This document shows, piece by piece, positions 7,904 to 56,581 of a stretch of DNA of 64,000 nucleotides (positions are counted from its first letter, which is position 1; the number at the start of each line of letters is the position of its first letter). The stretch covers positions 1-64,000 of the forward strand of contig JBNGIO010005627.1 in NCBI GenBank assembly GCA_049999805.1, read 5' to 3'. Both the position numbers and the translations under genes were made by a program. Origin of the DNA: Folioceros fuciformis. Its lineage: Eukaryota. The notes under the pieces were generated by a model, which was not told the DNA's origin, did not search any database, and saw only the letters and a program-made list of their open reading frames with translations.

Positions 7904-9579
7904 ATGGGGAGCGCGCAGGAGGAGAAGTTGCCGTGCAGGGAGAAGGCGGTGCTGAAGGGGCATGAAGGGGCCGTGCTTGCTGTCCGGTTCAACAGGGATG
8001 GGAATTACTGTCTCAGCTGCGGGAAGGATCGGCTGCTGCGGTTGTGGAATCCTAGCAAGAGCCTGCTCATAAAGAAGTATTCGGGCCATGCCAGGGAGGT
8101 TCGCGATGTGGCTACTTCCAGGTGTGGACTCTGTTCTTGCTGCGCATTTGGGAGATGTCAGGGTTTAGGGTTTACGGCGTGCTCACACCTGTGGGAATCG
8201 GGATTTGCAGCGATAATGCCAAGTTAACTTCCTGCGGAGGGGATCGCCAGATCTTCTTCTGGGACGTTGCCACTGGGAGGATTATACGAAAGTTTCGAGG
8301 CCATGATAGCGAGGTTTGCATGCTTTCTTCGTAAGGTTGAGAATTTGTGCGCGGACGCGCGGGGAGGTTTTGGTTTCAGCTAATTCTGTGGGTGTGTGCT
8401 TCAGGTGAATTCCGTGAAGTTCAACGAGCAAGATGCAGCAATTGTGTCTGGCGGGTACGATCGGACAGTGCGGGCGTGGGACTGTCGATCGAATAGTATG
8501 GAGCCCATTCAGGTCTTGACTGGATCTGCTACTATTAGGTGGAGGAGTCCTGTTTTATGTTCGTGTCAAGGGGTCAATTGGAGGGCACTACTGGGGTTTT
8601 AACTGAAGGACGCCTTGAAGACGTGGCCTTTGCGAACCTTTTTTGACTTGGGAATTTTTTGTGGCAGACTATTGATGCGTTTGGCGACAGTGTTACATCT
8701 GTCGTGCTTACTGCGACGGAGATAATAGCTGGATCGGTGGATGGGAGCGTCCGAACTTTTGACATTCGACTAGGCAGGTAGGTAATGACTCATGCTTATG
8801 ATGCAGTCAAAGCTTGGTCAGTCTCAACCATGAAGTCCCTCATCGAATGTTCTGGTTGGCGTTCAGGGAGATTGTAGATCAGCTAGGACAGTCCGTGACG
8901 AGTGTGGCCCTCTCGCACGACAATAACTGTATACTTGCAGGTTGCCTTGATTCCACTCTCAGACTCTTGGACAGGTTAGTGTTCACGTTTCCTCCATCCA
9001 GTACAGGGTACGCCTGGCTTTCTTCACCTGTCGCTCGAAAGTATCAGTAGGGAAAGGTCGAAAGCCACATTCCGAATTGGAAATCATAAAAAAGGCTGAC
9101 GGAAGTGTGCAATGTGTCGTCTGGCAGGAGTTCTGGCGAACAGCTGCAGCAGTACAAGGGGCACATGAACAAAGTAAGAAAACCACCATGGGTGCCTGTT
9201 CTCGCACCATAACTGCTTGCTTAGACTGCTTGCCTAACAGTTGGACTGTGATATGTCACCTGTGTGCAGTCGTTCAAGATGGATAGCTGCCTGACCCACA
9301 CTGATGCTTATGTCGTGAGCGGGTCCGAAGATGGCTCTGTCTACTTCTGGGATTTGGTGGACCCCAAGAACCTAACCACCTTCAAGGCTCATTCTGCTGT
9401 GGTGAGCATTTCACTGTCTCGGGACAAAGGCTGTTTCACTTTTCCAGTTTCCAAGCAACACACGTTCTGTGACCGCGTGCTCGTCTCCCTCGCAGGTGAC
9501 AAGTGTCAGCTACCACCCGAAAGAGAGCTGCATGTTGACAGCGTCGGTGGATGGAACCATCCGGATGTGGAAGCCGTGA
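7904..9579 (+). CDS. WDR83: WD40-repeat protein WDR83/MORG1 homolog, multi-exon
   Basis: LKGHEGAVLAVRFNRDGNYCLSCGKDRLLRLWNP, SCGGDRQIFFWDVATGRIIRKFRGHDSEVNSVKFN, VSGSEDGSVYFWDLV; ends IRMWKP* at 9579. Confidence 0.92.
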
Positions 9580-9742
9580 GACCAGCCAGCAGGGGTTGCA
9601 ATAGCAGGAAATAGTGACAACAGCTCGATAGCTTCCTGCAGAAGCGTGCGGCCCAAGCATAGATAGGGCAACGAATACAGCACAACAAACATGTGGATTC
9701 ATGACGTACAGATGGGCAAGTACCCAGCATTGTCTTGAAAGT

Positions 9743-11020
9743 TTAAGGCCATCCGGAAGTGGCAACCTCCCGGATTCTGTACACCGGCCGTGGCTGGGAT
9801 TCGAAGTAGGTCTTCATACAAATGTCAGCCACTAGGCCCAGGAAGATGCATTGCAGGCCAATGACGAAGAGCTCAAGAGCTAATACGAGAGTCGGAACCA
9901 CAGTCTGGAATGCAGCCCGCCATCCACTCGAGAGAGATGCTGAGTACATAGACACTCCCGCTACAGACGCCGTCCCCATGGATGCAAGCAAGCAGAAGCC
10001 TCCAACAAGGCCAATCAAATGCATCGGCCGGTCTCTGAACTTGGCCCAGAAGCACACAGTGATGAGGTCCAGAAGAACCCGAGGTATCCTTCCCAGGCCG
10101 TATTTGGAGGAACCAAACGAACGTCCAGTGTGATTTACTTCCAGCTCGGCAATGGCGGCTCCCTCGATGGCAGCCAGAGCCGGAATGTACCTGTGCATTT
10201 CACCGTAAAGCTTGATGTTGGCCACGGCAGTGGCTCTGTACGCCTTGAGGCTGCATCCGTAGTCATGGAGCTTCAAACCTGTGGCAGCACCGATGATCCA
10301 GTTGGCTATGGCCGAGGGGAGGTTTCTGCTGAAGAGGTTGTCCTTGCGGCTGCGCCTCCATCCGCACACTAGGTCGTATCCTCCATCCTCCCTGGCTGCA
10401 GTGCTCACCCGGCTATTCTTGCTGGTGGAGGCCTTTTCCTGGGCGCCGTAGAGAAGGTGATCCAGCAGCCGTGGGATGTCCTCGGCGTCGTTCTGCAGGT
10501 CGCCATCCAGCGTCACCACCAGCTGGCCAGCAGCCAAGTCGAAGCCCGCCGCCATCGCCGCAGTCTGGCCGAAGTTGCGCCCCAGGATGACAGCCCGCAG
10601 GTCCAGTCTTTCAGCAGCCATAGCCTTGAGCAGGGCGCCGGAGCCATCTGTGGAGCCGTCGTCCACGCACAGTATCTCATATGGTACGTCCCGCTTGCGC
10701 ATCACCTGCCCCACCTTCTCCAACAGCATTGGCAGGTTGGGCTTCTCGTTGTATACAGGGATGATCACGGAGACCGGCCATTTCTCCGGGACATCAACTG
10801 GCTGTGGGGCCGGCGCGACTCCTCCTGGTAACTCTAGGTTGGGCCTTCTCTGGACTGGTTGCCTCCGGCTCCATTCTGGCGAAGTTGCAGGGACTTGCGT
10901 GTGCCTCGCTACACATCGCACAAGCCTCTGTTTCTTGGGGAGTGCAGACCCGCTGAAATCCTGTCTGCCTAGGGGAAAGAATTTGTGGGGCTGCCAGACG
11001 AGAGCAGCCGTAGTTCCCAT
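9743..11020 (-). CDS. Intronless GT2 polyprenyl-phosphate glycosyltransferase (GtrB/ArnC-like, cyanobacterial-type) with N-terminal extension
   Basis: 425-aa ORF: SVIIPVYNE, VDDGSTDG, RNFGQTAAMAAG, TLDGDLQND, HDYGCSLKAYR, LYGEMHRYIPALA, FGSSKYG; two C-terminal hydrophobic helices; ~75-aa basic N-terminus rich in Pro, Arg and Ser. Confidence 0.9.
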   Translation of the reverse strand: MGTTAALVWQPHKFFPLGRQDFSGSALPKKQRLVRCVARHTQVPATSPEWSRRQPVQRRPNLELPGGVAPAPQPVDVPEKWPVSVIIPVYNEKPNLPMLLEKVGQVMRKRDVPYEILCVDDGSTDGSGALLKAMAAERLDLRAVILGRNFGQTAAMAAGFDLAAGQLVVTLDGDLQNDAEDIPRLLDHLLYGAQEKASTSKNSRVSTAAREDGGYDLVCGWRRSRKDNLFSRNLPSAIANWIIGAATGLKLHDYGCSLKAYRATAVANIKLYGEMHRYIPALAAIEGAAIAELEVNHTGRSFGSSKYGLGRIPRVLLDLITVCFWAKFRDRPMHLIGLVGGFCLLASMGTASVAGVSMYSASLSSGWRAAFQTVVPTLVLALELFVIGLQCIFLGLVADICMKTYFESQPRPVYRIREVATSGWP

Positions 11021-11103
11021 GTCTGAACTGAGCTTGAATTTGGGCTACCTAAAGCCCTAGGCAAGAGTTGTTTATATGCTGCTGGAGGTTTCTACCGGCT
11101 GTG

Positions 11104-12933
<1,830 letters not shown>

Positions 12934-40241: not shown

Positions 40242-42053
40242 ATGGCTGGTTTGGAGTTTAGGAATCCAAGAAGGGATTCTCCTTACACAAGTTGTACCAA
40301 ACATATCAACCATAAGGTTGGAAAGCCTCTTGTATGGCAAGATGATATGGCAGAAATAAGAGAGACGTATCGTCGTGTTGCTAAAATCAAAGACACTGCG
40401 TACACAGGATTTTCTTGCTTAGATCCAGCACGAACAGCGGAGGTCTTGAGCAAGAATAGGAAGGCAAGGAAAGAAGTGTTACACTCATTTGAGCAAATTC
40501 ATTATCTAAATTCCTCAAGTCCATTTGAGGCTTTTCAGCATGTTCGAAATGTACGCAATATGTGTAGAAGAATTCAATCTATTAGTTCTCTTACTGAAAG
40601 GAAAAAGAATCCTTGGGATGTTGAATTGTTTCCAGCATTATTGAGGAGACCAACAACAGCATGTCCAGTGAGACATCCAAGATGTCACAGAGGCTGTGGC
40701 CCAACAAGGCCTGTCTCAGTGCCTGTCTATACTGATAGAACACCCAAGTGTTATGCTCCAGCTTCATTTTCCCAGCTCTTGGATATATCCAACAAGCCAG
40801 AAAGCACTTGTCATGCTTGTCATTACAAAGCTCCCTATGATCGTCCATCTCAACAAGACAAGTCACCTCGTTCAAGGGCTGCATATTATCATAACTATAT
40901 GTTAACATCTGGACCATCATCCCCAAGCCAAGAATCCACTAGATTCTTATATGATGGTTTGCATAAGTTGGCAATTCAACATACAGAAACACCTGCTTCA
41001 ACAAATGTTTACATGCATTCCTATGATGACGAGGACACCATACAATTGAGGTCTCCTCCTATATCAGAGAGATTTTATACCAATAATCGCCATTATGAAA
41101 CAAACCTTAGTAAACAAGCAACTTCAAGAGTACTAATTGAAAAACCTTTGGATACAGTTGAGAAAAAATTCAATGACAATCAAGAGAACATGGTGGAAAA
41201 GTCATGGGTGCCTGAACAGGGGAAAACTGCAAGGAAACTAGTAGAACGACGTTACCCAATTGACAATGTGAAGAGGGGTCAAAGTAAATCATACTACACT
41301 CTAGGATCATCTAGTTTAGAGCATCCTAGTCTAGATAATGCTAATTTGACTGATAGAGTTTTAACAGATTCAGACTCTAGTTCTGAGACAGAAAAAGTTC
41401 CACCAAGACGATCCAAGTCACATGGCTCTAGAAGTAAGGTTTCTCTTTCCCAGAACATGCCAAGAAGTACAATTGAGCCTCGGAAACGATCTGTGATAAG
41501 TAAATCCCTTTTCAAACGAGCAACTATTGAAAAGCCATTAGCTCAACCACTGATAGATAAATCTTCTACGGATACCCCAAGTATAGAATGCTGTTCTCCA
41601 AGAGATAGCTTAACATTAGGCCTTCATCAACCATCCCCATCCACAGAATGTAAAGAAGATGTTATGGCCACTCTGGTTAGAATAGACGGTATCAATGATA
41701 CAAGAAATAAGATGAATCTTCCAGAGTGTTCAGCTAGTGATAGCCCTGCAACAACAATGTCCAACATCAACACCATTGATAAGAATCAACTAGTAGAGGA
41801 CTTGGAACAAAAGAAAGGGTTCTATGAAACAGGAGAGAGTGGAGTAATAATAAAACACTCAACTGATCCCTATGTTGATTTTAAGAACTCTATGATGGAG
41901 ATGATTGCTGAGGAAAAACTTGAGAATAGGCCTGACGCCATTGAAGACCTCTTTCAATATTACTTGGATCTAAATCCGGGAGCACATCACCAAGTTATTG
42001 AAAGGGTCATAATAGATATTAGAAAAGAGCTTAAAGCAAAAAGATCATTGTAA
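40242..42053 (+). CDS. OVATE family protein (OFP), intronless, 603 aa
   Basis: C-terminal OVATE domain IIKHSTDPYVDFKNSMMEMIAE...IEDLFQYYLDLNPGAHHQVIERVIIDI after a long Ser-rich, low-complexity region. Confidence 0.9.
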   Translation: MAGLEFRNPRRDSPYTSCTKHINHKVGKPLVWQDDMAEIRETYRRVAKIKDTAYTGFSCLDPARTAEVLSKNRKARKEVLHSFEQIHYLNSSSPFEAFQHVRNVRNMCRRIQSISSLTERKKNPWDVELFPALLRRPTTACPVRHPRCHRGCGPTRPVSVPVYTDRTPKCYAPASFSQLLDISNKPESTCHACHYKAPYDRPSQQDKSPRSRAAYYHNYMLTSGPSSPSQESTRFLYDGLHKLAIQHTETPASTNVYMHSYDDEDTIQLRSPPISERFYTNNRHYETNLSKQATSRVLIEKPLDTVEKKFNDNQENMVEKSWVPEQGKTARKLVERRYPIDNVKRGQSKSYYTLGSSSLEHPSLDNANLTDRVLTDSDSSSETEKVPPRRSKSHGSRSKVSLSQNMPRSTIEPRKRSVISKSLFKRATIEKPLAQPLIDKSSTDTPSIECCSPRDSLTLGLHQPSPSTECKEDVMATLVRIDGINDTRNKMNLPECSASDSPATTMSNINTIDKNQLVEDLEQKKGFYETGESGVIIKHSTDPYVDFKNSMMEMIAEEKLENRPDAIEDLFQYYLDLNPGAHHQVIERVIIDIRKELKAKRSL

Positions 42054-46344: not shown

Positions 46345-49300
46345 TCACTGCCTCAAATTGACGTCGTCGTTGCCGTCATAGTTTTGCGAAAATGCCGACA
46401 TGGGCTCAGTGTGTGCTTCTGGGATTGGTTCTGCGGTAACATGCTCCTCGGAGTCAGCAGATTTGTCACAATTATCACTACTCTCAGAAGTAGATCCCAG
46501 GATTTCATCTTCATCGAGCGGTAGCAAGTCCCCGCCCAGAGCCACTGCCCAGAATTGGTCCAGTGCCTGAAACAAACACGCTTCAGCAGACCATGTCACA
46601 CAACGATGTAAGCGAGGCAGAAGAGCAGGTTGCTGCCACTCACAGTGTGTGAAAGCTTCACGCCAGAATCTTCACCAGTAAATTCGCCGTACACAAACTT
46701 CAAAGGTTCTTCACTCTGCACCAGCGTTAATATCCACGGCGGACTATATCCCTACGGAAGTTGAAAGAGGAAGTAAGAATCCACCGCCGGTATCTGTGCA
46801 ATGCATCTGTTCGCACAGGCTACCTGAGTGTCCACTGGTGCGCACAGGGCACTGGAATCAATCCCTAGCCATTTCTCGAGTCGACGAGTGATGTACACTT
46901 CTAGATAACCACAGAACCGGTTATGTCGGCGACACAGGAATAACAGCACCAACATGACCACACAGGAGCCAACTGATCCCACACTGATGCCTACGATGAA
47001 CCCGGTGCGACCTGCGATCCAGAAGCAAGTCAGGACTTGATTTTTCGTTTGATAGGATGATCCATGCCACAAACATAAATGTTCTGCGAAACTGTCTGCG
47101 TATCTCCACGTGCGGCAAGGCAATGAGATGTTATCCAAGACCTTGAATGGGTGGTTGCTGGCCTGGGAGCAGCTTAATCAAGGCAGTGGCGTGAAGAGGG
47201 ACAGGACGGTTGCTGGAGCAGTCACCGATGCATCCGAAGTTGCCCAGGTCGTTGACTGTCACAGTCAGCTTTGCTATCAATTTCGGACCAGCCTACAGCA
47301 AGAGAAGCAACTCAGGGACATTTAACCAGGTTGAAAACATCGAGACCCATGAACCAGAATAGGAAGAGTGACATTTTCTCCGGATGTGCAAAAGTTTTAA
47401 GTTTCGTATAGATCACGGTGAATGCAGTGGTCTTCAAGGGTTGCAAGTGTCACCTGCTGGTACCATGTAAGGGATGATCCCAAGGCTGTGTTGCACTCTT
47501 CAACTGAAGCTGTGAAGCAGATGCCCTGACCATCGACCATGATACGACTGCCAACTGTAGCCATGGGTACGGTAGTCCACTTATTACCTTGGTAGGTTGA
47601 GGCGTTTAGTTCTTTGCTGCTTATAAGCTTCAAAGAGATTTGGCCGCTGCTGACAGTCAAACAGACTTGAAGGAGAAGAACTTTGATATCAGCTGTGAAG
47701 CAGATGAAGACAGAAACAGGTTTCTATCATTCCCCGTCAGATTGAAGAAAAAGCTGCTTGCTGTAGACTCCAGGACGAAATGTATGCCAGGACAAAATGT
47801 ATAACACCTACTTCGAACATCAAACTGGTCTGGATCGCCTACTGAGATCCCGTACACGTTTCCCGTAAGCCAGGTAGCCACGATGGTGGGATTCGCTATA
47901 ATGTAAGGTGGGTCATTCACTGGCAGTATCTGCAACACTGTCGTCAGCTCATCACCACTCAACGAGAGGTCAGCTCCACCCGGGTCGAACAAGTGCAAGG
48001 AAATCGTATCATTTCCATTGTAGTGCTTAGTCCTGCGAAAAAACGACCAGATTCGCCAATAATTTAGCGTTACACGTTAAGCCAATGCCTGAACAGTGTT
48101 TCTCAGAGACATTGCAAAATGTTTGTACCCTGTGTATGCTATTGCCTGAAGGGCTGCACCTATGTCCGGGATAGATCCTGAGAACCGCAGCGCCCTGTTT
48201 GCTTGATCATCATGTGCTTCCTGTGTATTTGCGATAAGTATTGAAGCTTGAGATTGTGCAATCACTTGCATCCACATATTTGCCATTGTCGGTACGAAGT
48301 ATAGGAGTCCGTGCAAAGCGGACAGTGTAACACTCAAACGCACATTCGCATCCTTGTAGCCCACCTCCATGCATGGTAAACCCCTGTTTCAGTTGAATAG
48401 CGAACATATTTAGCACACTAATTGCCATGCCATGCTAAGTGAACCGTACACTAACAGCTAGGAAAATACCCTTGGAGAGGAACTGGATGGTCTTCTACAG
48501 ATTTCAGTGACGAAGGCATTGACAATATGTATGGCAGCAACAGGACAGTGCTTGCACTCAGACTTTTGTAAAAGCACTGAACAGCCCCAGCTGAGACATC
48601 CTGCAGATAGTCTGCAGCAGCCAGAACATCCATGAGACGTGTCATCTTGGAATCAAGACTAACCAAACCCCCAAGGCACTGGCTTACTTGATGTCACATT
48701 GATTACGAATGGGCTCGATCTGATGTGCAAGTCGTTAGACGACTTGATTGAGAGCTGATATTGACCAACCTCGAAAACCACGTACATCGCATAATATAAC
48801 CCGCTAGTAAGCCGTTTGAAATCGTTTGGCTGCTGGCCATTGTCTCCGATAAGGAAAAAAAAGGCAACTGAGTTTCCTTCTTCATCGATGCTGTCAGATA
48901 GATCATTGCCAAATACGTCTTTAAGCTGCACCCAGATACGTTGTGGTCTCTGTGCTATTGCTGTTCTTAAACCTGAACCCAAGCCGATGCAGAAAGGGAC
49001 AAAGACTGGACCTGCAAGGATAAGGGTCCACTGCACTTAATCCACTCCACTGCACTTAATCCGAACTTCTAATGAGCCTTGAGGAAGGACTAAGAAACTC
49101 GGAAAGCCTACCAGGGGAAATGGTGATTGAGAAGGGGCTATCCTTCACTTGCTGTTTGCCCAGGTGAACATACACAAGATACACGCCCGTATGATTCCAG
49201 TCAATGCTCCCAGAATATGTTCCATTTCCGGTGGGCATCAGCTTGGAAGAGTGATTAACCACAGCATCCCCCACCACATCGACTGAGAAGCTGTCAGGAA

Positions 49301-52300
49301 ACGTTCCATCCGTTGTCATCGTGATGAGATTTCCGTACTGATCACTTAGTTGCACTGCCAGTGCATATCCAACTGCAGCAGTCTGATTTTGAAGGCCCGA
49401 GCCAGTCGCCTCGCTCATCTCCACTGCCCAGCTTGCTGGTGTGTAGGACAGCAACAAATAAAACGTCATGAATGACAAAGTTGTGTGTTTCATGCATTGT
49501 AAAGAAAGCAACCTGCACTGTAGGATTAGCAATAAGCTGAGATGGATGAGTGACCACCTGGAGAAACCAGCAGTCCATATGGTCCCCCTCCAATCCTTGT
49601 CCCGAAGAGGGTAACAAACAAAGTATAATCACCAGCGTCTGTCACATTCAGTAAAGCGAGGAAGCTCCCTGCAGCTGCCTTCTGGAGATGCGCTTGGAAG
49701 TATGCAGAACCAATATTGGGCTGTGGAATGACCTCCACAGCAAAGTCAAAATCGACTGCTGAGGGCGAATTGCCCCTGGCGTCATACGCATGTATAGTCA
49801 CGGAGGTTGTTTCCCCTGCCTGCACATGGGCACTTGCTGGTGAAACAAATGCCCTGCAGTAAGATGCTCGCACTCCCCCTGCAGTTTCTCTGACATTCAA
49901 TGCCTGACCAGCAGTAGGTCGAATCTGTAAACGAACATGAGATGAACAAGGTGGAGAAAGTACCAGACTGTACGACATAAATTGAAAAAGGACTACCAAT
50001 CAAATCTGCACCAAGATATTTCACGGTGATTTTGTATGTGCCAGTACTACTTGTGGTGTAACTTGCGCTGTATAATCCGCTTCTCAGGTCAGTAAAACTA
50101 GTAAGCACGGCATTCCCTGGGCCAGAGACAGCAAGGCTCAGTAACTGCTCCTTCTCAGTAACATCATTGCCAAAGAGATCCAGTAAGTGCACCACAATTT
50201 CGTTCGTCAGGCTCACTGTTGCCAAGCGAGAAAGACCCTCTCCAGTTGCATAGGACACACTCAAGTCCACAATTCCTGCAAATCCAGTGGAGCACAAAAC
50301 GTGTCTTACTTATTGTTCTGGCCCACGTGTACCAGTTTACACGGAAGAATTAGTCCAACACAATTGAGGGCAACTAGTTCAAGTCGTACCAGTCGTCACA
50401 TTGAACTTAAATGGAGATCCTTGAATTTGCGTTGTTCTGTCTCCCACATACAGGAGGTAGTCTCCCCTGTTCTCAAGTATGAAGCTGATGACAATATCGT
50501 CAGACTGCTTCTGAACGTTCAAACGAACAAGGTCTAGAAATTTCTTTGGGCTTTCACGTTTGGCCACCGTAACTACCCACATATTGGTTGCCACATTGCC
50601 AAGAACATTGTTCCAAGCATCCCTTGGTGAAACAATAAACACCCCTTCGTCACCCGCGATGATCTCTAATGTATCATTTAGCCAATGCCCTATGCAAAAG
50701 GGAAGATACAGCGATCCTGAATATGAACGGAACTTGGTGAGCACTAGCCATCAGAGTCCAGCACTACATGATGAAATCCAGTGAGTGTGACCCCTGAATC
50801 ACTTCAGACAAACCTGCTGAGTAGGAGAACACAAATGGAGAGCCTAGAATAGGAGTGAAAGGCTGGTCAGGACTCCCAACTTGAATAATGTACTGATTAG
50901 GGACAGTCAGGGTGAAGGTGATCAGCTGTGAACCTTGCTCTAATATGCCGTATGGGGTCATCTTAACTGTAGATGAGGTATTCACAAGTCCGTTCGAGGT
51001 AGCAATCCATACTAGAAAGTTGTAGTAGCCAGAGCTGCCAGGTACAACATTCCCATATCTATCCCTTTGAAACACTAGCAGGCGACCGAGCATACCCGCT
51101 GCAAAATTGTTCTGCTGGTTCAACCACAACCCTGTGCAGCTCTGCACCGAAATAGGTCCTACAGAATCAACGGTTTTTTTCCCAAGTTTAGGGTTTAGAC
51201 CAATGTAAATATGCAACTCGCTCACGACATAAACAAGCAAGAAAAACCTGGTATCAAATGAATAGTGAACGGACTCCTTGGGATACCAGTCGTGTTTATT
51301 CCAACAGCACTAACAACAAACATGACCATGGTTGAGCCTGTGATGGGAATCCTCTGGAATGAGTACTGAATGGTTGCGTAACCGGAGTAGTAACTCACAT
51401 TTACCGGTACAGTGACAGGGTTAAAATATACATCCAAAGTTCCCGATGGATAGGGATTCTTGTACATGTCATACAGACTGACACTAAATTGCTGCAGCAT
51501 TCCTACGACCCCACCTGGAGAAGAACATGAACACAGATGAGGTATTTTGGCAATAAAATATTTGAAGCAGATTCAAGGAACGATCTGACTAGACAACCTT
51601 ACCTTGTAACCCATCCCCTGATGCAAAGCAGTATGGGACATAAATTGGGCCTGCATGGAGATGAGCCAGGATTAGAGAAAACTTGAAGGATGGCATCCTT
51701 CATGCGTGTTTACAAAGCTTTATACAGCAGATACTTTGCCCTGCCTGCAACGGTGACATTTCAACCCATGTCTGACATACCTGCCAACACAGTTCTGTTA
51801 TATGTCCTGGCAATCTCTCCTTGTACGCCAATCAACAAGGGTATTTGTCTACTGTCTGAGGCAGTAACTTGTAGTGAGTAAATGCCTACCGTGTACAAGA
51901 CATATGAAACATGGAACAACCCAAGCGATGCAGGGACGGCTGAGACATTCACTCCTTTCACTTCTGTTTGCTTGTTGGCTTTCACTGTGAATGTTCTCAC
52001 AACCAGATGTATAGAAGCTGAGTCACCAGCTGGGTTGTCATATGAGTCCACAAACTGTACGTCAAAGGTTGTCACTGCTCCTGCGACTATATCATAAATG
52101 CCCGGTTGCAAAATGGTCCTGGTTGCATTAATTGGCCCTACACATTAAATTGCACAGTATGTCTATTTCTCATTCCATGATCCCTATTGGAGATACGAGT
52201 TGGAATTCAAACGCTCTTGGACTCGTGTGCCCTAACGAAGTACCTGAGGTGCAAGTGAAAGAGAAGGGAGACCCGCGTACGGTTAAGAAGTCTTTATCCA

Positions 52301-55300
52301 AGATCACAAGTTGCAAGGTCCCAGCTTCAGTGATCGTAAAAGAAATGGTAAAGTTATTGCTTGCTGTTGATGAAGGAGCTGACGGTTTGATCTCCATGTC
52401 ATCAGTCGGCACAGCACTTTCGAAGCCGCCCACGACCTTGTACACAGAAGGAGAAAGTTTGCGGTAGTATTGGCTGTCGATCGATAGAGGAACAGGATTT
52501 CCAAGTGCATCGTTTTGGAAGAGGATGAAATAGACCACTGATCCGGCTACATATGTGACTTCCTTTTGAGAAAAAACTCCTGTGCAACTGGTTGTTGAGA
52601 CAGCACCTGCCCAATTCGAACTGAGTTCAGTCATCACCATTTTAAAACTCCTTCAGGATCTTCACCCTCAGGCTTAAACTATACGACTGCATTGAAAGCA
52701 TTGTCACCGTATTTTGCACTGAACCTCACAGGTTACCTTTTACATTGAAGAGAAATGGCGACCCCATAATATAGTTCTTGCCACTTCCGACTTGCAAATG
52801 AAAGTTGTTGCCCGGGTACACTGGGTAGAAGGAGGCAGTGTGATATCCAGACCCATCCTGTGGTGGGTATACAGTTACTGGAACAGCTGTTGGCATGGTC
52901 TCTAAGATCAGAGCTGAAAAGTTAACACTAGGCTTCTGCACGCCAGTGGCAACGCTGACAACATTCCCAAAGGTGTCCACAGCTTGAATTTTCAAGATAG
53001 CTTCATCACCAGGGTTGAAGGTGCTCTTGTTGTCGAACCAAAATCCAGTACTTGCCGTAACCGATACGTCACCTGCAATATGACCAGAATAAACTTCACC
53101 ACGTGCTAGCAGCGTAAGCAATGCTCTCCCGTCCCTCTCTTTGCTGACAATGTATGAATTTTGGTCGCGTTCCCTAACTGACCTGCAAACACGGTGAACG
53201 CAAAGGGAGCTCCTCTAATACTCCTGTTCGACTCTTGAACCTGCAACAGAAATTGGCCTGCTACTTGAGGGATAAACTCAACAACAGCACGGCCATAGTA
53301 CTCTAGCTTGAATGTTTGTCCACTATAGCCATGCACATACAGACTTGGCACTGGCAGCAACGGCCACATTGTTGGATAGAGGGTGATATTTATCATCCTT
53401 TCAACTTGGTGCAACCTGTCAGACGTGAGCTGCAGTCTGTTGCCAAACTTATCAGCTAGAATGACGTAGAAGTATGCTGTTGCACCAGCAGTGATTTTGT
53501 TGCTTTCCCATTGTCCAGTGCAGCTGGGAACGTAAACTGAAGGACCTGTATCCACCGAGTCACTATTGAGCCCAGAAGTTGCGCACAAGGGTGGGCTTTA
53601 GAAGGTCCTTACTGTCAGTTGTGAACAGATCCAAGGGGGAATGCTGGAACTCGGCATCAGAGTTTCCCACGTGAAGCTTGTACAGGCTATTGGATACGTT
53701 GGGTGCAAGCAAAGAGAGTCTCTGAAATCCTGGAACAACTGCATAATCAGTCCAGGTCAAGGAGCTGAAAAGCATTTCACAATGACCCAAAGTAGACAGC
53801 ATACAGATGCCTACCGTCAGAACTGTTATTCAACACATTGAGGATGGGTGTGGACACAATCCTCCCATCAATTCGCTTGATTACAGCTTTCCATGGGAAA
53901 TTCAGCATTTTCAAAGACGAACTAACAGTTACTACATTACCCGTGGCATCAACTAGCCTGACTTTGACATATATCAAAGCCCCAGGGAAGAAAGGGCCTT
54001 GCTGATCAAAGCTAACAGCACTTTGGGCCATCCAAACTTTACCTGCCAAGTAAAACATTCAAAGATGTATGTTCAGTCCTCCACTATGCCTCAAGCTCCA
54101 CCAATCCTTCTAGGGCAAGCATCTCATTACAGATTTGAACAACGTGCAACCTCCTTGTCCAGAGCACGACCTCAATGCTTGCCTAAATACTTGCAACTGA
54201 GTAGGGACTAGGACCCCCTGCTTGCACACCTGGAAGGACTGTAATTTGGAATGGACAGCCAGCGAGGGGATGGCCGTCCAAGGTAGTAGCATACAGTTGA
54301 TACAGACCCACCAATGGTGGAATAGAAATTGAAACCATCTGATCGATATGTGTTGCGTCCACTGATCTAAAAGTGTAAAGAGGATAAATTCGGAGACCAT
54401 CTTTAACAAGGTAGCAAGTCCAAGCTGCAGTGGCTCCAACTAAATTGGAGTAAAAATCCATTTGGGTAATGCCCAAGTACATATAGTTATCATCTGCAGT
54501 GACCGTTTTCTTGGTAGTATGGGCAACGGATGTTGGACCATACACTGCATCTGCATGCTTCATCAAAGGAGTTAAATTGTTGGTTTAACAAGACGTGAGC
54601 AAGATCTGTCCCAAGTCAACATATATGCAACTGCATACAACCATCTTACCAGGAATGACAGTGAACGGATATGGAGAATTGGAAATTTGGATGCTAGAAG
54701 TTCCCACACGGATCCGGAAAGTTCTGGCAATGACTGGAATGAAGGATATCAAGAGCGACACATTGTCTTGACCTATTAGAACACTGATTGGCGGGATGCT
54801 TTCATACAAGTAAAAGTCCCAGATCTTTGTGCCTGCTGTGAAATCCTCAAGTATCTGGTTTGTAGCGTTCACAGCGTTGAAGTTTGAGTCCAAAAGGAAC
54901 AGAGTAAAGAGCATCTTATTTCCAGCGATGATCTGAGATGTTTCAGCTTCTATAAGAGAAGTAGATACAGAAAGCGGGCCTGTGAATGCATACAAACCTG
55001 TCAACCTGTCAAACCATGCATAAAAACCCACTGAAGCCCCGTATGCTGCTAATTTCGTAATGATATACAAAAACATCGTCATCTTACCAGCAATAACACT
55101 AAACTTCACAGGTGCACCATCCGGATACTGATCCAGGGCGCCCAAGTTCAGTGTGTAATTGCCAGCACAGCTGGTTCGGAATGTAAGGGTCAATTGTCCG
55201 TCAAGGGTTGGAGGATGAGAAATGAGCCCATTGGCATTCAGGGAGTCTACTCCACGAGAAGACGTGCCACTGAACCCATAGATCCATTGCCAGCTGTTGG

Positions 55301-56581
55301 TGCTGGGTCGCCCAGTGGTGTGATACCCTACCTTATTCCCATATGCATCATAGAAGTCAACAGTAAACACTACATAATCGCCTGCAACCAGCTCAAAACG
55401 GCTCAGCGTCTTCACCTCACTCTTCGACAACACGATATCACCTGTTCCACCAAAATTGGCAAGTTTGTGTACGGCCGTAGCTGTGTATGGGCTAACTACC
55501 AAGAGATACATCAGCAAAATACAACTTCAGGGTTCCAAGCATCGTATAGCCTGAAACTCTTCAGGCAGCGCTGACAATGCCTGTGGAAGGACTGAAAGGC
55601 CCTGTCCACTGATACATACAACGACTCCAACATCCATGCCCCAAATTCGGAATCAAGACCATACAAGCAGAATTCTTAGCACCACATTCGAATGCAACCA
55701 GCAAGACTTTCTAAGATAATTCCTTGACAATGGAAACCATATAGAATTGTAGAATGTTGCCTTGAGCTAGCCCGAAATCAGACACATGCTGCATTTGAGG
55801 AATGAAGCCGCGGGGTATGGTATCCCAACCTGGGTTGATCACCTGCCAGAAACTTGATGTTCAAATATGCACCCAAGTCCACGTAAGGCGGGTCCCCTGC
55901 CGAAGAAGATCCTGCAACAGTCAGGGTCCACCTCCAAGTATCATAAAAGGAGGCAAGTTGGTTTCTTGCTACACAGGTTGCAGTGGCGGCCGTATCCTTG
56001 CCCATGTCAAAAGCAAAACTACAGGCCAAGCCTCCAATGTCATTCTGGTCCGCTCCATGATCCAGAACCGCCAGAGAGCGCCTATTAAAGATGGAAGACA
56101 TGTTGAAATCAAATGAGTTCCCAGTGCTCGAGGTGGACGGCTTCGCACAGACATTGTACTCATGGTTGCAGGTGATTCCTGAGCCAAGGTTCTGGTGGAC
56201 AGTATCGGCTGGGCACGAAGTGTCGTAGTAAACCGGAAAGGTAAAAGTGAATGCTTGGCCAATTCTGACTGGAGCCCAGCCTGGATATTCATGAGGTAGT
56301 TGTTGCTTCATACAAAAATTGGCGCGATTGAAGATATAACTAGCATCACAAACTTCCTCAGCAGACGTAGCAGGCCCAGCACGAATTAGAGGACACGCCG
56401 AGACACAGCCGCCTGCAAAGGCACAATTGAATTGATCAACTTCACAACTACAAGGTACTGAGACTACCCACCAAGTCGCAAATCAAGTAAGGTACTCACA
56501 ATGGCTCCTGCTACGCTTGTGGTTCAGAGCGCTGCACGCTATGAAAATAAGACATATGGCAACCCTCCCAGCGACATGCAT
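46345..56581 (-). CDS. GEX2: GEX2/FUS1-like single-pass membrane protein with about 15 filamin/Ig-like modules, more than 25 exons
   Basis: Signal-like start MHVAGRVAICLIFIAC; repeated DxxGN...G.Y.L.V....I.GSPF...V..G modules; GEX2 C-terminal hallmarks PVNDPP, ISVGDPD and VNDLGNFGCIGDC (~47210-47260); TM helix GFIVGISVGSVGSCVVMLVLLFLC followed by RRHNR; acidic cytoplasmic tail. Confidence 0.85.

Follow-up and report, generated by a model that had tools for sequence, protein, structure and literature searches.

Results

The GT2 locus

The window, that is, the whole 64,000-nucleotide stretch of Folioceros fuciformis DNA analysed here, carries on its minus strand a single open frame of 425 codons plus stop (9743-11020), and none of 300 shuffles produced a frame as long. 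This gene, hereafter GT2, is single-copy, with one match in its own 87-Mb assembly. It lies tail-to-tail with a WD40 gene that has seven GT-AG introns and head-to-head with an MT-A70 gene; we take the former to be WDR83-like and the latter to be METTL4-like. The features of the locus are as follows.

9743-11020, minus strand: GT2 gene, intronless, predicted to encode a 425-aa ArnC-fold polyprenyl-phosphate glycosyltransferase (ORF; Pfam, PDB and Foldseek matches)
10775-11020, minus strand: N-terminal extension of 82 aa, transit-peptide-like by composition, of low model confidence and divergent between related species
10493-10507, minus strand: D172-G-D174-L-Q176, aligned with ArnC D100/D102/Q104; proposed base and metal site
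10385-10450, minus strand: polar insertion of about 22 aa, present in all streptophyte orthologues measured, variable in length
10313-10357, minus strand: R222, R225, R232 and S236, aligned with ArnC R128, R131, R137 and S141; putative acceptor lipid-phosphate site
10121-10123, minus strand: R300, aligned with ArnC R205; putative nucleotide-sugar phosphate contact
9962-10018, minus strand: TM helix 1, residues 335-353 (hydropathy and structure model)
9830-9886, minus strand: TM helix 2, residues 379-397 (hydropathy and structure model)
7904-9579, plus strand: WD40 gene with seven introns, convergent flank (spliced contigs; context only)
11104-13100, plus strand: MT-A70 gene with at least six introns, divergent flank, end approximate (spliced contigs; context only)

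A first-pass annotation of this DNA had described an intronless 425-aa ORF between two intron-rich genes, and both the single frame and the spliced flanks bear this out. All six motifs that it quoted occur in the GT2 translation, and hydropathy places its two C-terminal TM helices at residues 335-353 and 379-397. The transit-peptide-like N-terminus, put at about 75 aa, corresponds to 82 aa preceding the first GT-A strand, and the polar insertion, put at about 20 aa, measures 22 aa by spacing comparison.

A contig of the same species from another study spans 9495-11418 with zero differences and is unspliced over the GT2 ORF. In a second species, one contig runs from spliced WD40 exons through an unspliced GT2 ORF into the MT-A70 gene, with divergence in the leader. 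In a third species, the WD40 gene and the 3' part of the ORF are continuous on one DNA contig. A fourth run, possibly the source itself, is not counted as independent evidence. Since the contigs of the first two species carry GT-AG joints in both flanking genes, they behave as RNA, a nature judged from the spliced joints, as the contigs carry no strand or level. The GT2 ORF is therefore real, and RNA-like contigs of two species connect it with its flanking genes; the first-pass annotation had made its reading depend on this connection, which the DNA contig of the third species also contains on the WD40 side. Between the divergent GT2 and MT-A70 start codons lie 83 bases (11021-11103), spanned by RNA-like contigs in two species, which suggests overlapping 5' UTRs or a common promoter.

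GT2 is an ArnC-type protein

The GT2 protein matches Glycos_transf_2 in Pfam. Among NCBIfam models ArnC scores highest, but its 191.6 bits are below the equivalog cut-off of 529. Sequence matches in the PDB rank ArnC (165 bits) above GtrB (85) and archaeal DPMS (47), and Foldseek gives the same order, with an E value of 1.6e-23 for ArnC; the structure model used has a mean pLDDT of 73.9, with residues 1-73 below 50. The protein has the layout of polyprenyl-phosphate glycosyltransferases, namely a GT-A domain with DXD followed by juxtamembrane and TM helices. Moreover, in an alignment to named ArnC every compared catalytic residue is kept (D172, D174, Q176, R222, R225, R232, S236 and R300). Excerpts of the ArnC report (bioRxiv 10.1101/2025.01.29.634835) assign base, metal, acceptor and donor contacts to the equivalents D100, D102, Q104, R128, R131, R137, S141 and R205; GtrB is treated in excerpts of PMC12698845. 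GT2 thus very probably has polyprenyl-phosphate glycosyltransferase activity; it probably acts as ArnC does, yet is not ArnC.

The first-pass annotation had placed the protein in the ArnC/GtrB class rather than with DPM1 or ALG5, and PDB matches, Foldseek and the residue alignment agree on this. Its narrower label, GtrB/ArnC-like, holds for the ArnC half, whereas GtrB itself is distant. Eukaryotic DPM1 and ALG5 are absent from every match list for GT2, the lists being the basis of this statement because the trees contain no DPM1 or ALG5 rows.

A leader and an insertion distinguish the green proteins

The first 50 aa of the query leader contain 4% D+E, 14% R+K and 14% S+T, and are only moderately Ser/Thr-rich. 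All 14 green GT2 proteins measured have extensions of 68-168 aa, the first 50 positions of which are 0-8% acidic, and the algal leaders are long and Ser/Thr-rich, reaching 34% S+T over the same length. The composition of the query and of these 14 proteins fits the transit-peptide-like leader claimed by the first-pass annotation, and from leader composition we consider a plastid location likely.

The insertion was measured as a spacing of 43 in the query versus 21 in three cyanobacterial proteins, a difference of 22 aa. All 15 streptophyte or plant-like proteins that were measured have it, as does one MMETSP alga; Pyramimonas lacks it, and the 109 bacterial-type matches measured all have the short spacing. 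In Mesostigma, the streptophyte insertion has grown to about 250 low-complexity residues.

GT2 is spread through the green lineage and joins cyanobacteria

Relatives were sought by scoring 8000 candidates and listing the best 120. The nine best matches (389-567 bits) are green-lineage proteins or proteins with the same insertion. The next 111 listed score at most 368 bits, and the named ones are cyanobacterial, bar a truncated Sphagnum model and a protein labelled 'Obscuribacterales', which nests among cyanobacteria in a 97-row tree. Named orthologues come from Physcomitrium, Sphagnum, Spirogloea, Klebsormidium and Closterium; further ones come from Chara, Ceratodon, Mesostigma and Pyramimonas and from the JGI models Mesen1 and Chlat1, presumably Mesotaenium and Chlorokybus. 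The moss and algal members XP_024362297 (Physcomitrium), GAQ82612 and GBG78209 belong to the same family and are already catalogued, without an assigned function. Among the matches listed (120, 60 and 120 rows), none of the named ones comes from a liverwort, a lycophyte, a fern, a seed plant or a red alga, which suggests absence from these groups. The Spirogloea model covers 2333 bases for 318 aa and thus has introns, so intron loss is lineage-specific.

In an LG+C20 tree of 62 rows (quick search), 17 green GT2 proteins form one clade (support 98) that is sister to 19 cyanobacteria (100). These 62 rows are a 97-row set minus 35, namely GtrB, 18 long or odd-composition rows and 16 cyanobacterial rows; the trees contain neither red algae nor glaucophytes. 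The 97-row LG+G4 tree keeps 16 of the 17 green rows together (98) and leaves their join to cyanobacteria unresolved, and a tree of 36 rows recovers that join at 99. The cyanobacterial affinity and endosymbiotic origin proposed by the first-pass annotation are upheld by this sister position, which fits an ancient gene from the plastid's cyanobacterial ancestor, vertically inherited in the green lineage.

The same annotation had also offered transfer from a Nostoc symbiont, and such a recent transfer, or contamination, would agree with an intronless gene whose nearest bacterial matches are cyanobacterial. However, forcing the query together with three Nostocales was rejected by an AU test on the 36 rows (p-AU 4.7e-23), and GC3 is 0.67 in GT2 versus 0.38-0.43 in three Nostocales genes. 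The gene is moreover green-lineage-wide, its insertion is common to streptophytes, its Spirogloea orthologue has introns, and the ORF is joined to spliced flanks in several species. Recent transfer and contamination are ruled out on these grounds, and we attach a negligible probability to them.

Two unusual gene models were met among the relatives. The Chara model GBG78209 joins a DUF92 domain to GT2, probably by merging neighbours; DUF92 is, we assume, the VTE6 phytyl-phosphate kinase family, and both parts would act on prenyl phosphates. A 900-aa cyanobacterial-type protein fuses a part that we read as GT-C-like, at its N-terminus, to GT2, and is either a real fusion or an assembly error.

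Neighbours and co-loss of GT2 in cyanobacteria

We surveyed the neighbourhoods of 80 GT2 loci, nearly all cyanobacterial. An SH3-NlpC/P60 peptidase gene neighbours GT2 in 45 of them and lies directly upstream in 33, often within 15 bp. Other recurrent neighbours are beta-lactamase-like (36 of 80), MFS transporter (25) and moaC (21) genes. A PF03706 flippase-like gene is found in 14 loci, directly upstream in 11, and PMT_2 GT-C genes in three; no lpx gene is among the recurrent neighbours of the 80 loci. A protein-cluster atlas returned bacterial clusters only, in which the neighbours of the GT-C are labelled ArnT family, and no acceptor gene recurs beside the GT83. In six Prochlorococcus loci, psaA/psaB-like genes are immediately upstream of GT2, and psaL-like and peptidase genes are also nearby. 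Cyanobacterial-type loci were met on contigs labelled Sphingobacterium and Acetobacteraceae, which are probably mis-binned.

Co-loss was followed in one set of 81 Cyanobacteriia genomes, with thresholds of our own choosing. GT2 is present in 58. LpxC, the completeness control, is present in all 81, including the 23 without GT2, so the gaps in GT2 are mostly real. The PF03706 flippase-like gene also occurs in 58 genomes, with both genes in 56 and neither in 21 (phi 0.88). An ArnT-like GT83 of the DETEP type occurs in 56, together with GT2 in 51 and with both missing in 18 (phi 0.65); a DWDEG-type GT-C reaches a phi almost as high (0.61), and the HDEG type, used as a negative control, gives -0.17. 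At least one of the DETEP and DWDEG types is found in 57 of the 58 genomes bearing GT2. As the 81 genomes are related and not phylogenetically independent, p-values overstate the evidence. Each cyanobacterium has 2-11 PMT_2 matches. A phylum-wide GT-C search (33 of 101) was not used as a tally, since its sample apparently mixes classes.

The peptidase behaves differently. It is found in 77 of the 81 genomes and is kept in 20 of the 23 without GT2 (phi 0.24, p=0.07), and it is therefore a neighbour, not a co-lost partner. LpxK was found in none of the 81, so that test does not discriminate GT2 presence. Judged by gene content, the cyanobacterial pattern is that of a putative three-component system, with a donor synthase, a flippase and one or two GT-C transferases.

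Candidate partner genes in the F. fuciformis genome

A Prochlorococcus DETEP query found three collinear exons on contig C1223, from which a complete GT83 gene was modelled. Two candidate partner genes were delimited.

C1223:11060-14344, minus strand: ArnT-like GT83 gene, 12 exons and 11 GT-AG introns, 748 aa open, leader of about 150 aa
C3893:6804-9293: cyanobacterial-type LpxB gene, 11 exons, 485 aa, leader of about 88 aa, one GC-AG intron

The plant GT83 scores 335 bits against its best cyanobacterial DETEP match (37% identity) and falls within the cyanobacterial DETEP clade at 99 in a tree of 28 rows, one of them a named non-cyanobacterial row. This 12-exon gene supplies the GT-C transferase expected of a three-component system, and we regard it as a rather likely partner of GT2. 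The LpxB of C3893 scores 231-309 bits against 11 cyanobacterial LpxB proteins versus 98-120 against four others. In the tree it sits with cyanobacteria (99), and the other LpxB of the genome, on contig C1859, with proteobacteria (98). LpxC, on contig C5794, has summed tblastn bits of 250-325 against four cyanobacterial versus 129-168 against two alphaproteobacterial proteins and is cyanobacteria-leaning. GT83, the cyanobacterial-type LpxB and LpxC all have transit-peptide-like leaders. The plant sequences of GT83 and cyanobacterial-type LpxB compared here are those of F. fuciformis, and a metagenome scan gave no relatives of the plant GT83.

The flippase component is seen in cyanobacteria. In the plant genome, a family search that is insensitive to split genes returned no PF03706 or GtrA (PF04138) flippase and no NlpC/P60 (PF00877) match. 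The same search was blank for PF13231 although GT83 exists, a false negative, so the blanks for PF03706, PF00877 and PF04138 do not show absence. The GtrA-like flippases whose co-occurrence the first-pass annotation had suggested checking found no match in this search. One query for a DWDEG-type GT-C likewise gave no match.

The genome does carry a gene for a PBP transglycosylase. The search for PF00953 yielded an intronless 427-aa gene on contig C6320, GPT/ALG7-like by our own reading and a second intronless lipid-sugar gene, and an intron-split locus on contig C2750; with these as its matches, the search did not show MraY.

Discussion

Relation to known glycosylation systems

GT2 is already catalogued in moss, uncharacterised, and what we describe is a known type of bacterial system in an unexpected place. 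One of its closest known counterparts is ArnC (PmrF), which works with ArnT in enterobacterial lipid A aminoarabinosylation. ArnC is the best PDB match by sequence and fold, and the two proteins have in common a GT-A domain with two C-terminal TM helices, the active-site equivalents and an ArnT-like partner. They differ in that identity is about 36% and the NCBIfam score is below the cut-off, no arnA, arnB or arnD gene is among the recurrent neighbours in the 80 mostly cyanobacterial loci, and the plant protein is nuclear-encoded with a leader and an insertion.

The second comparison is with RgtE and RgtA-D/F of Rhizobium and Mesorhizobium, a bactoprenyl-phosphate-galacturonic acid (GalA) synthase and its GalA transferases. 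It was made through a Sinorhizobium GT2 located between flippase-like and GT39 genes, which scores 201 bits versus 153 for ArnC and has HDYGCSLK and GEMHR in common with the plant GT2. This protein may be RgtE-like, as read from its gene context; it is 39% identical to the plant GT2 and has no supported grouping with it in the trees, and the true RgtE is RL1470. One cyanobacterial orthologue of GT2 has been automatically named dodecaprenyl-phosphate galacturonate synthase. The systems are also alike in combining one donor synthase with several ArnT-like partners, and cyanobacterial lipid A can carry GalA. According to excerpts of PMC7663294, rgtD accounts for 4'-GalA, rgtF for 1-GalA and rgtE for bactoprenyl-phosphate-GalA transfer.

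The three-component glucosylation systems of GtrB (Synechocystis Sll0501, phage GtrB) resemble GT2 in fold and in three-part logic, but GtrB reaches 85 bits and 26% identity, and the co-inherited flippase candidate is of the PF03706 type, not GtrA. DPM1 and ALG5 are likewise GT2 lipid-phosphate glycosyltransferases, and the Klebsormidium orthologue is labelled dolichol-phosphate mannosyltransferase; however, archaeal DPMS matches at 47 bits and the GT2 clade is sister to cyanobacteria.

A possible plastid route to a glycosylated lipid A

The Lpx proteins of Arabidopsis are mitochondrial, the lipid A genes of plants are generally assigned to mitochondria, and the common view is that the outer envelope of plastids has lost its lipopolysaccharide. 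We propose that GT2 is part of a plastid-envelope pathway comparable to rhizobial RgtE/RgtD, in which a lipid A-type lipid is glycosylated, perhaps with galacturonic acid, and we give this proposal an even chance. The data establish the gene, its fold, residues and ancestry, the co-loss in cyanobacteria and the candidate partner genes in the plant genome; from these we infer the location, the sugar, the acceptor and the existence of the lipid. The gene would have come from the plastid's cyanobacterial ancestor by vertical descent and lost its introns in its own lineage. After import, its product would sit on the stromal face of the plastid inner envelope and would transfer a sugar from a nucleotide-sugar to polyprenyl phosphate, as ArnC does. 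A flippase would then move the polyprenyl-phospho-sugar across the envelope, where the GT83 of C1223 would attach its sugar to a disaccharide of the lipid A type, itself built by Lpx enzymes of cyanobacterial type (LpxB of C3893, LpxC of C5794). The whole would be a plastid counterpart of RgtE plus RgtD, placing GalA at the free 4' position, where other bacteria carry a 4'-phosphate. Lipid A is the acceptor towards which we lean slightly, and GalA is a tentative choice of sugar.

The literature offers several points of contact. We take GT19 to be the LpxB family. In excerpts of PMC3797821, Cyanidioschyzon and Galdieria are the only entries for GT19, algal GT2s whose activity is unknown are mentioned, and GT83 is reported from red algae and, among green plants, P. 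patens only, with horizontal transfer called the likeliest cause; the excerpts do not tie this GT83 to GT2 or to plastid lipid A. Excerpts of PMC3342304 give four GT19/LpxB copies in P. patens versus one in Selaginella, and GT51 in both. Cyanobacterial lipid A has no phosphate; in marine Synechococcus its C4 bears galacturonic acid, and the organism has no 4'-kinase (excerpts of PMC4515613). Term matches in PMC12398305, PMC8227023 and PMC6853609 gave nothing further, and a mention of 'rgtE' in a Selaginella paper, seen in excerpt, proved to be a reference title only and was set aside. An undescribed lipid-linked-sugar route had been suggested by the first-pass annotation, and our literature search, with most subscription journals and bioRxiv supplements outside its coverage, found no description of the plant GT2 or of a plastid GT2-GT83-lipid A route.

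Several results weigh against this proposal. The DWDEG-type GT-C has an almost equal co-occurrence with GT2 (phi 0.61), 23 LpxC-bearing genomes lack GT2, no lpx gene is a recurrent neighbour, and a peptidoglycan peptidase sits beside cyanobacterial GT2 in 45 of 80 loci; the RgtE-like Sinorhizobium protein, too, does not fall with the GT2 clade in the trees. The same donor synthase and GT83 could instead serve peptidoglycan or a wall-linked polysaccharide. The NlpC/P60-SH3 gene directly upstream in 33 of 80 loci, the beta-lactamase-like gene in 36 and the PBP transglycosylase gene in the plant genome are consistent with this, but the peptidase, in 77 of 81 genomes, is not co-lost, and the own-genome family search, insensitive to split genes, gave no NlpC/P60 match. 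In addition, Selaginella has GT51 (excerpts of PMC3342304) yet no named GT2 orthologue among the matches listed, and red algae have GT83 while plastid peptidoglycan is not identified for them in the excerpts of PMC3797821. We therefore judge such an acceptor decidedly unlikely. The link to the peptidoglycan-containing plastid that the first-pass annotation had raised is weak, given the peptidase kept in 20 of 23 cyanobacteria without GT2, and is replaced by the GT83/lipid A route to which the co-inherited partners point. An envelope protein or another glycolipid as acceptor is also unlikely. The PMT_2 fold covers protein glycosyltransferases too, each cyanobacterium has 2-11 PMT_2 matches, and no acceptor gene recurs beside GT83; against these stand the ArnT-family label of the atlas neighbours of the GT-C and the retention of a second, cyanobacterial-type LpxB in the plant genome.

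Two further readings change the place or the fate of the product. A mitochondrial or dual-targeted GT2 could modify mitochondrial lipid A precursors, since leaders were judged by composition and a proteobacterial-type LpxB is present; however, GT2, GT83 and one LpxB are all cyanobacterial and the algal leaders are long and Ser/Thr-rich, which makes this improbable. We consider it quite improbable that GT2 is an active donor synthase in a route that lacks flipping, or that it survives as a relic with its product consumed on the stromal side. The blank family search for flippases would agree with this, but that search has false negatives and the 748-aa GT83 gene is intact.

In its fullest form, the lipid A proposal holds that chloroplasts of mosses, F. 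fuciformis, streptophyte algae and perhaps red algae make a GalA-decorated, cyanobacterial-type lipid A through a polyprenyl-phosphate carrier in the envelope, which we consider unlikely as a whole. If true, this lipid would join peptidoglycan as a second remnant of the endosymbiont envelope, one that most land plants lost separately, and the co-retained GT2, GT83 and LpxB would reveal a plastid lipid A branch with bacterial three-component glycosylation. The GT83 genes of mosses and red algae, for which horizontal transfer was put forward as the probable cause, would become endosymbiont heritage. GT2 and its partners are likewise candidates for adding the sugar on cyanobacterial lipid A, and the missing enzymes of its galacturonosylation would then be named. 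Physcomitrium has GT2 (XP_024362297) and is easily knocked out, so chloroplast lipid A is directly testable there.

Other genes in the window

Elsewhere in the window, a long multi-exon gene with filamin and GEX2 Ig-like repeats occupies about 48000-56300 on the minus strand. An AT-rich, intronless OVATE-family gene (40242-42053; GC3 0.30) lies in a GC dip, as does a small protein with a weak match to a stress-antifungal domain (19859-20359).
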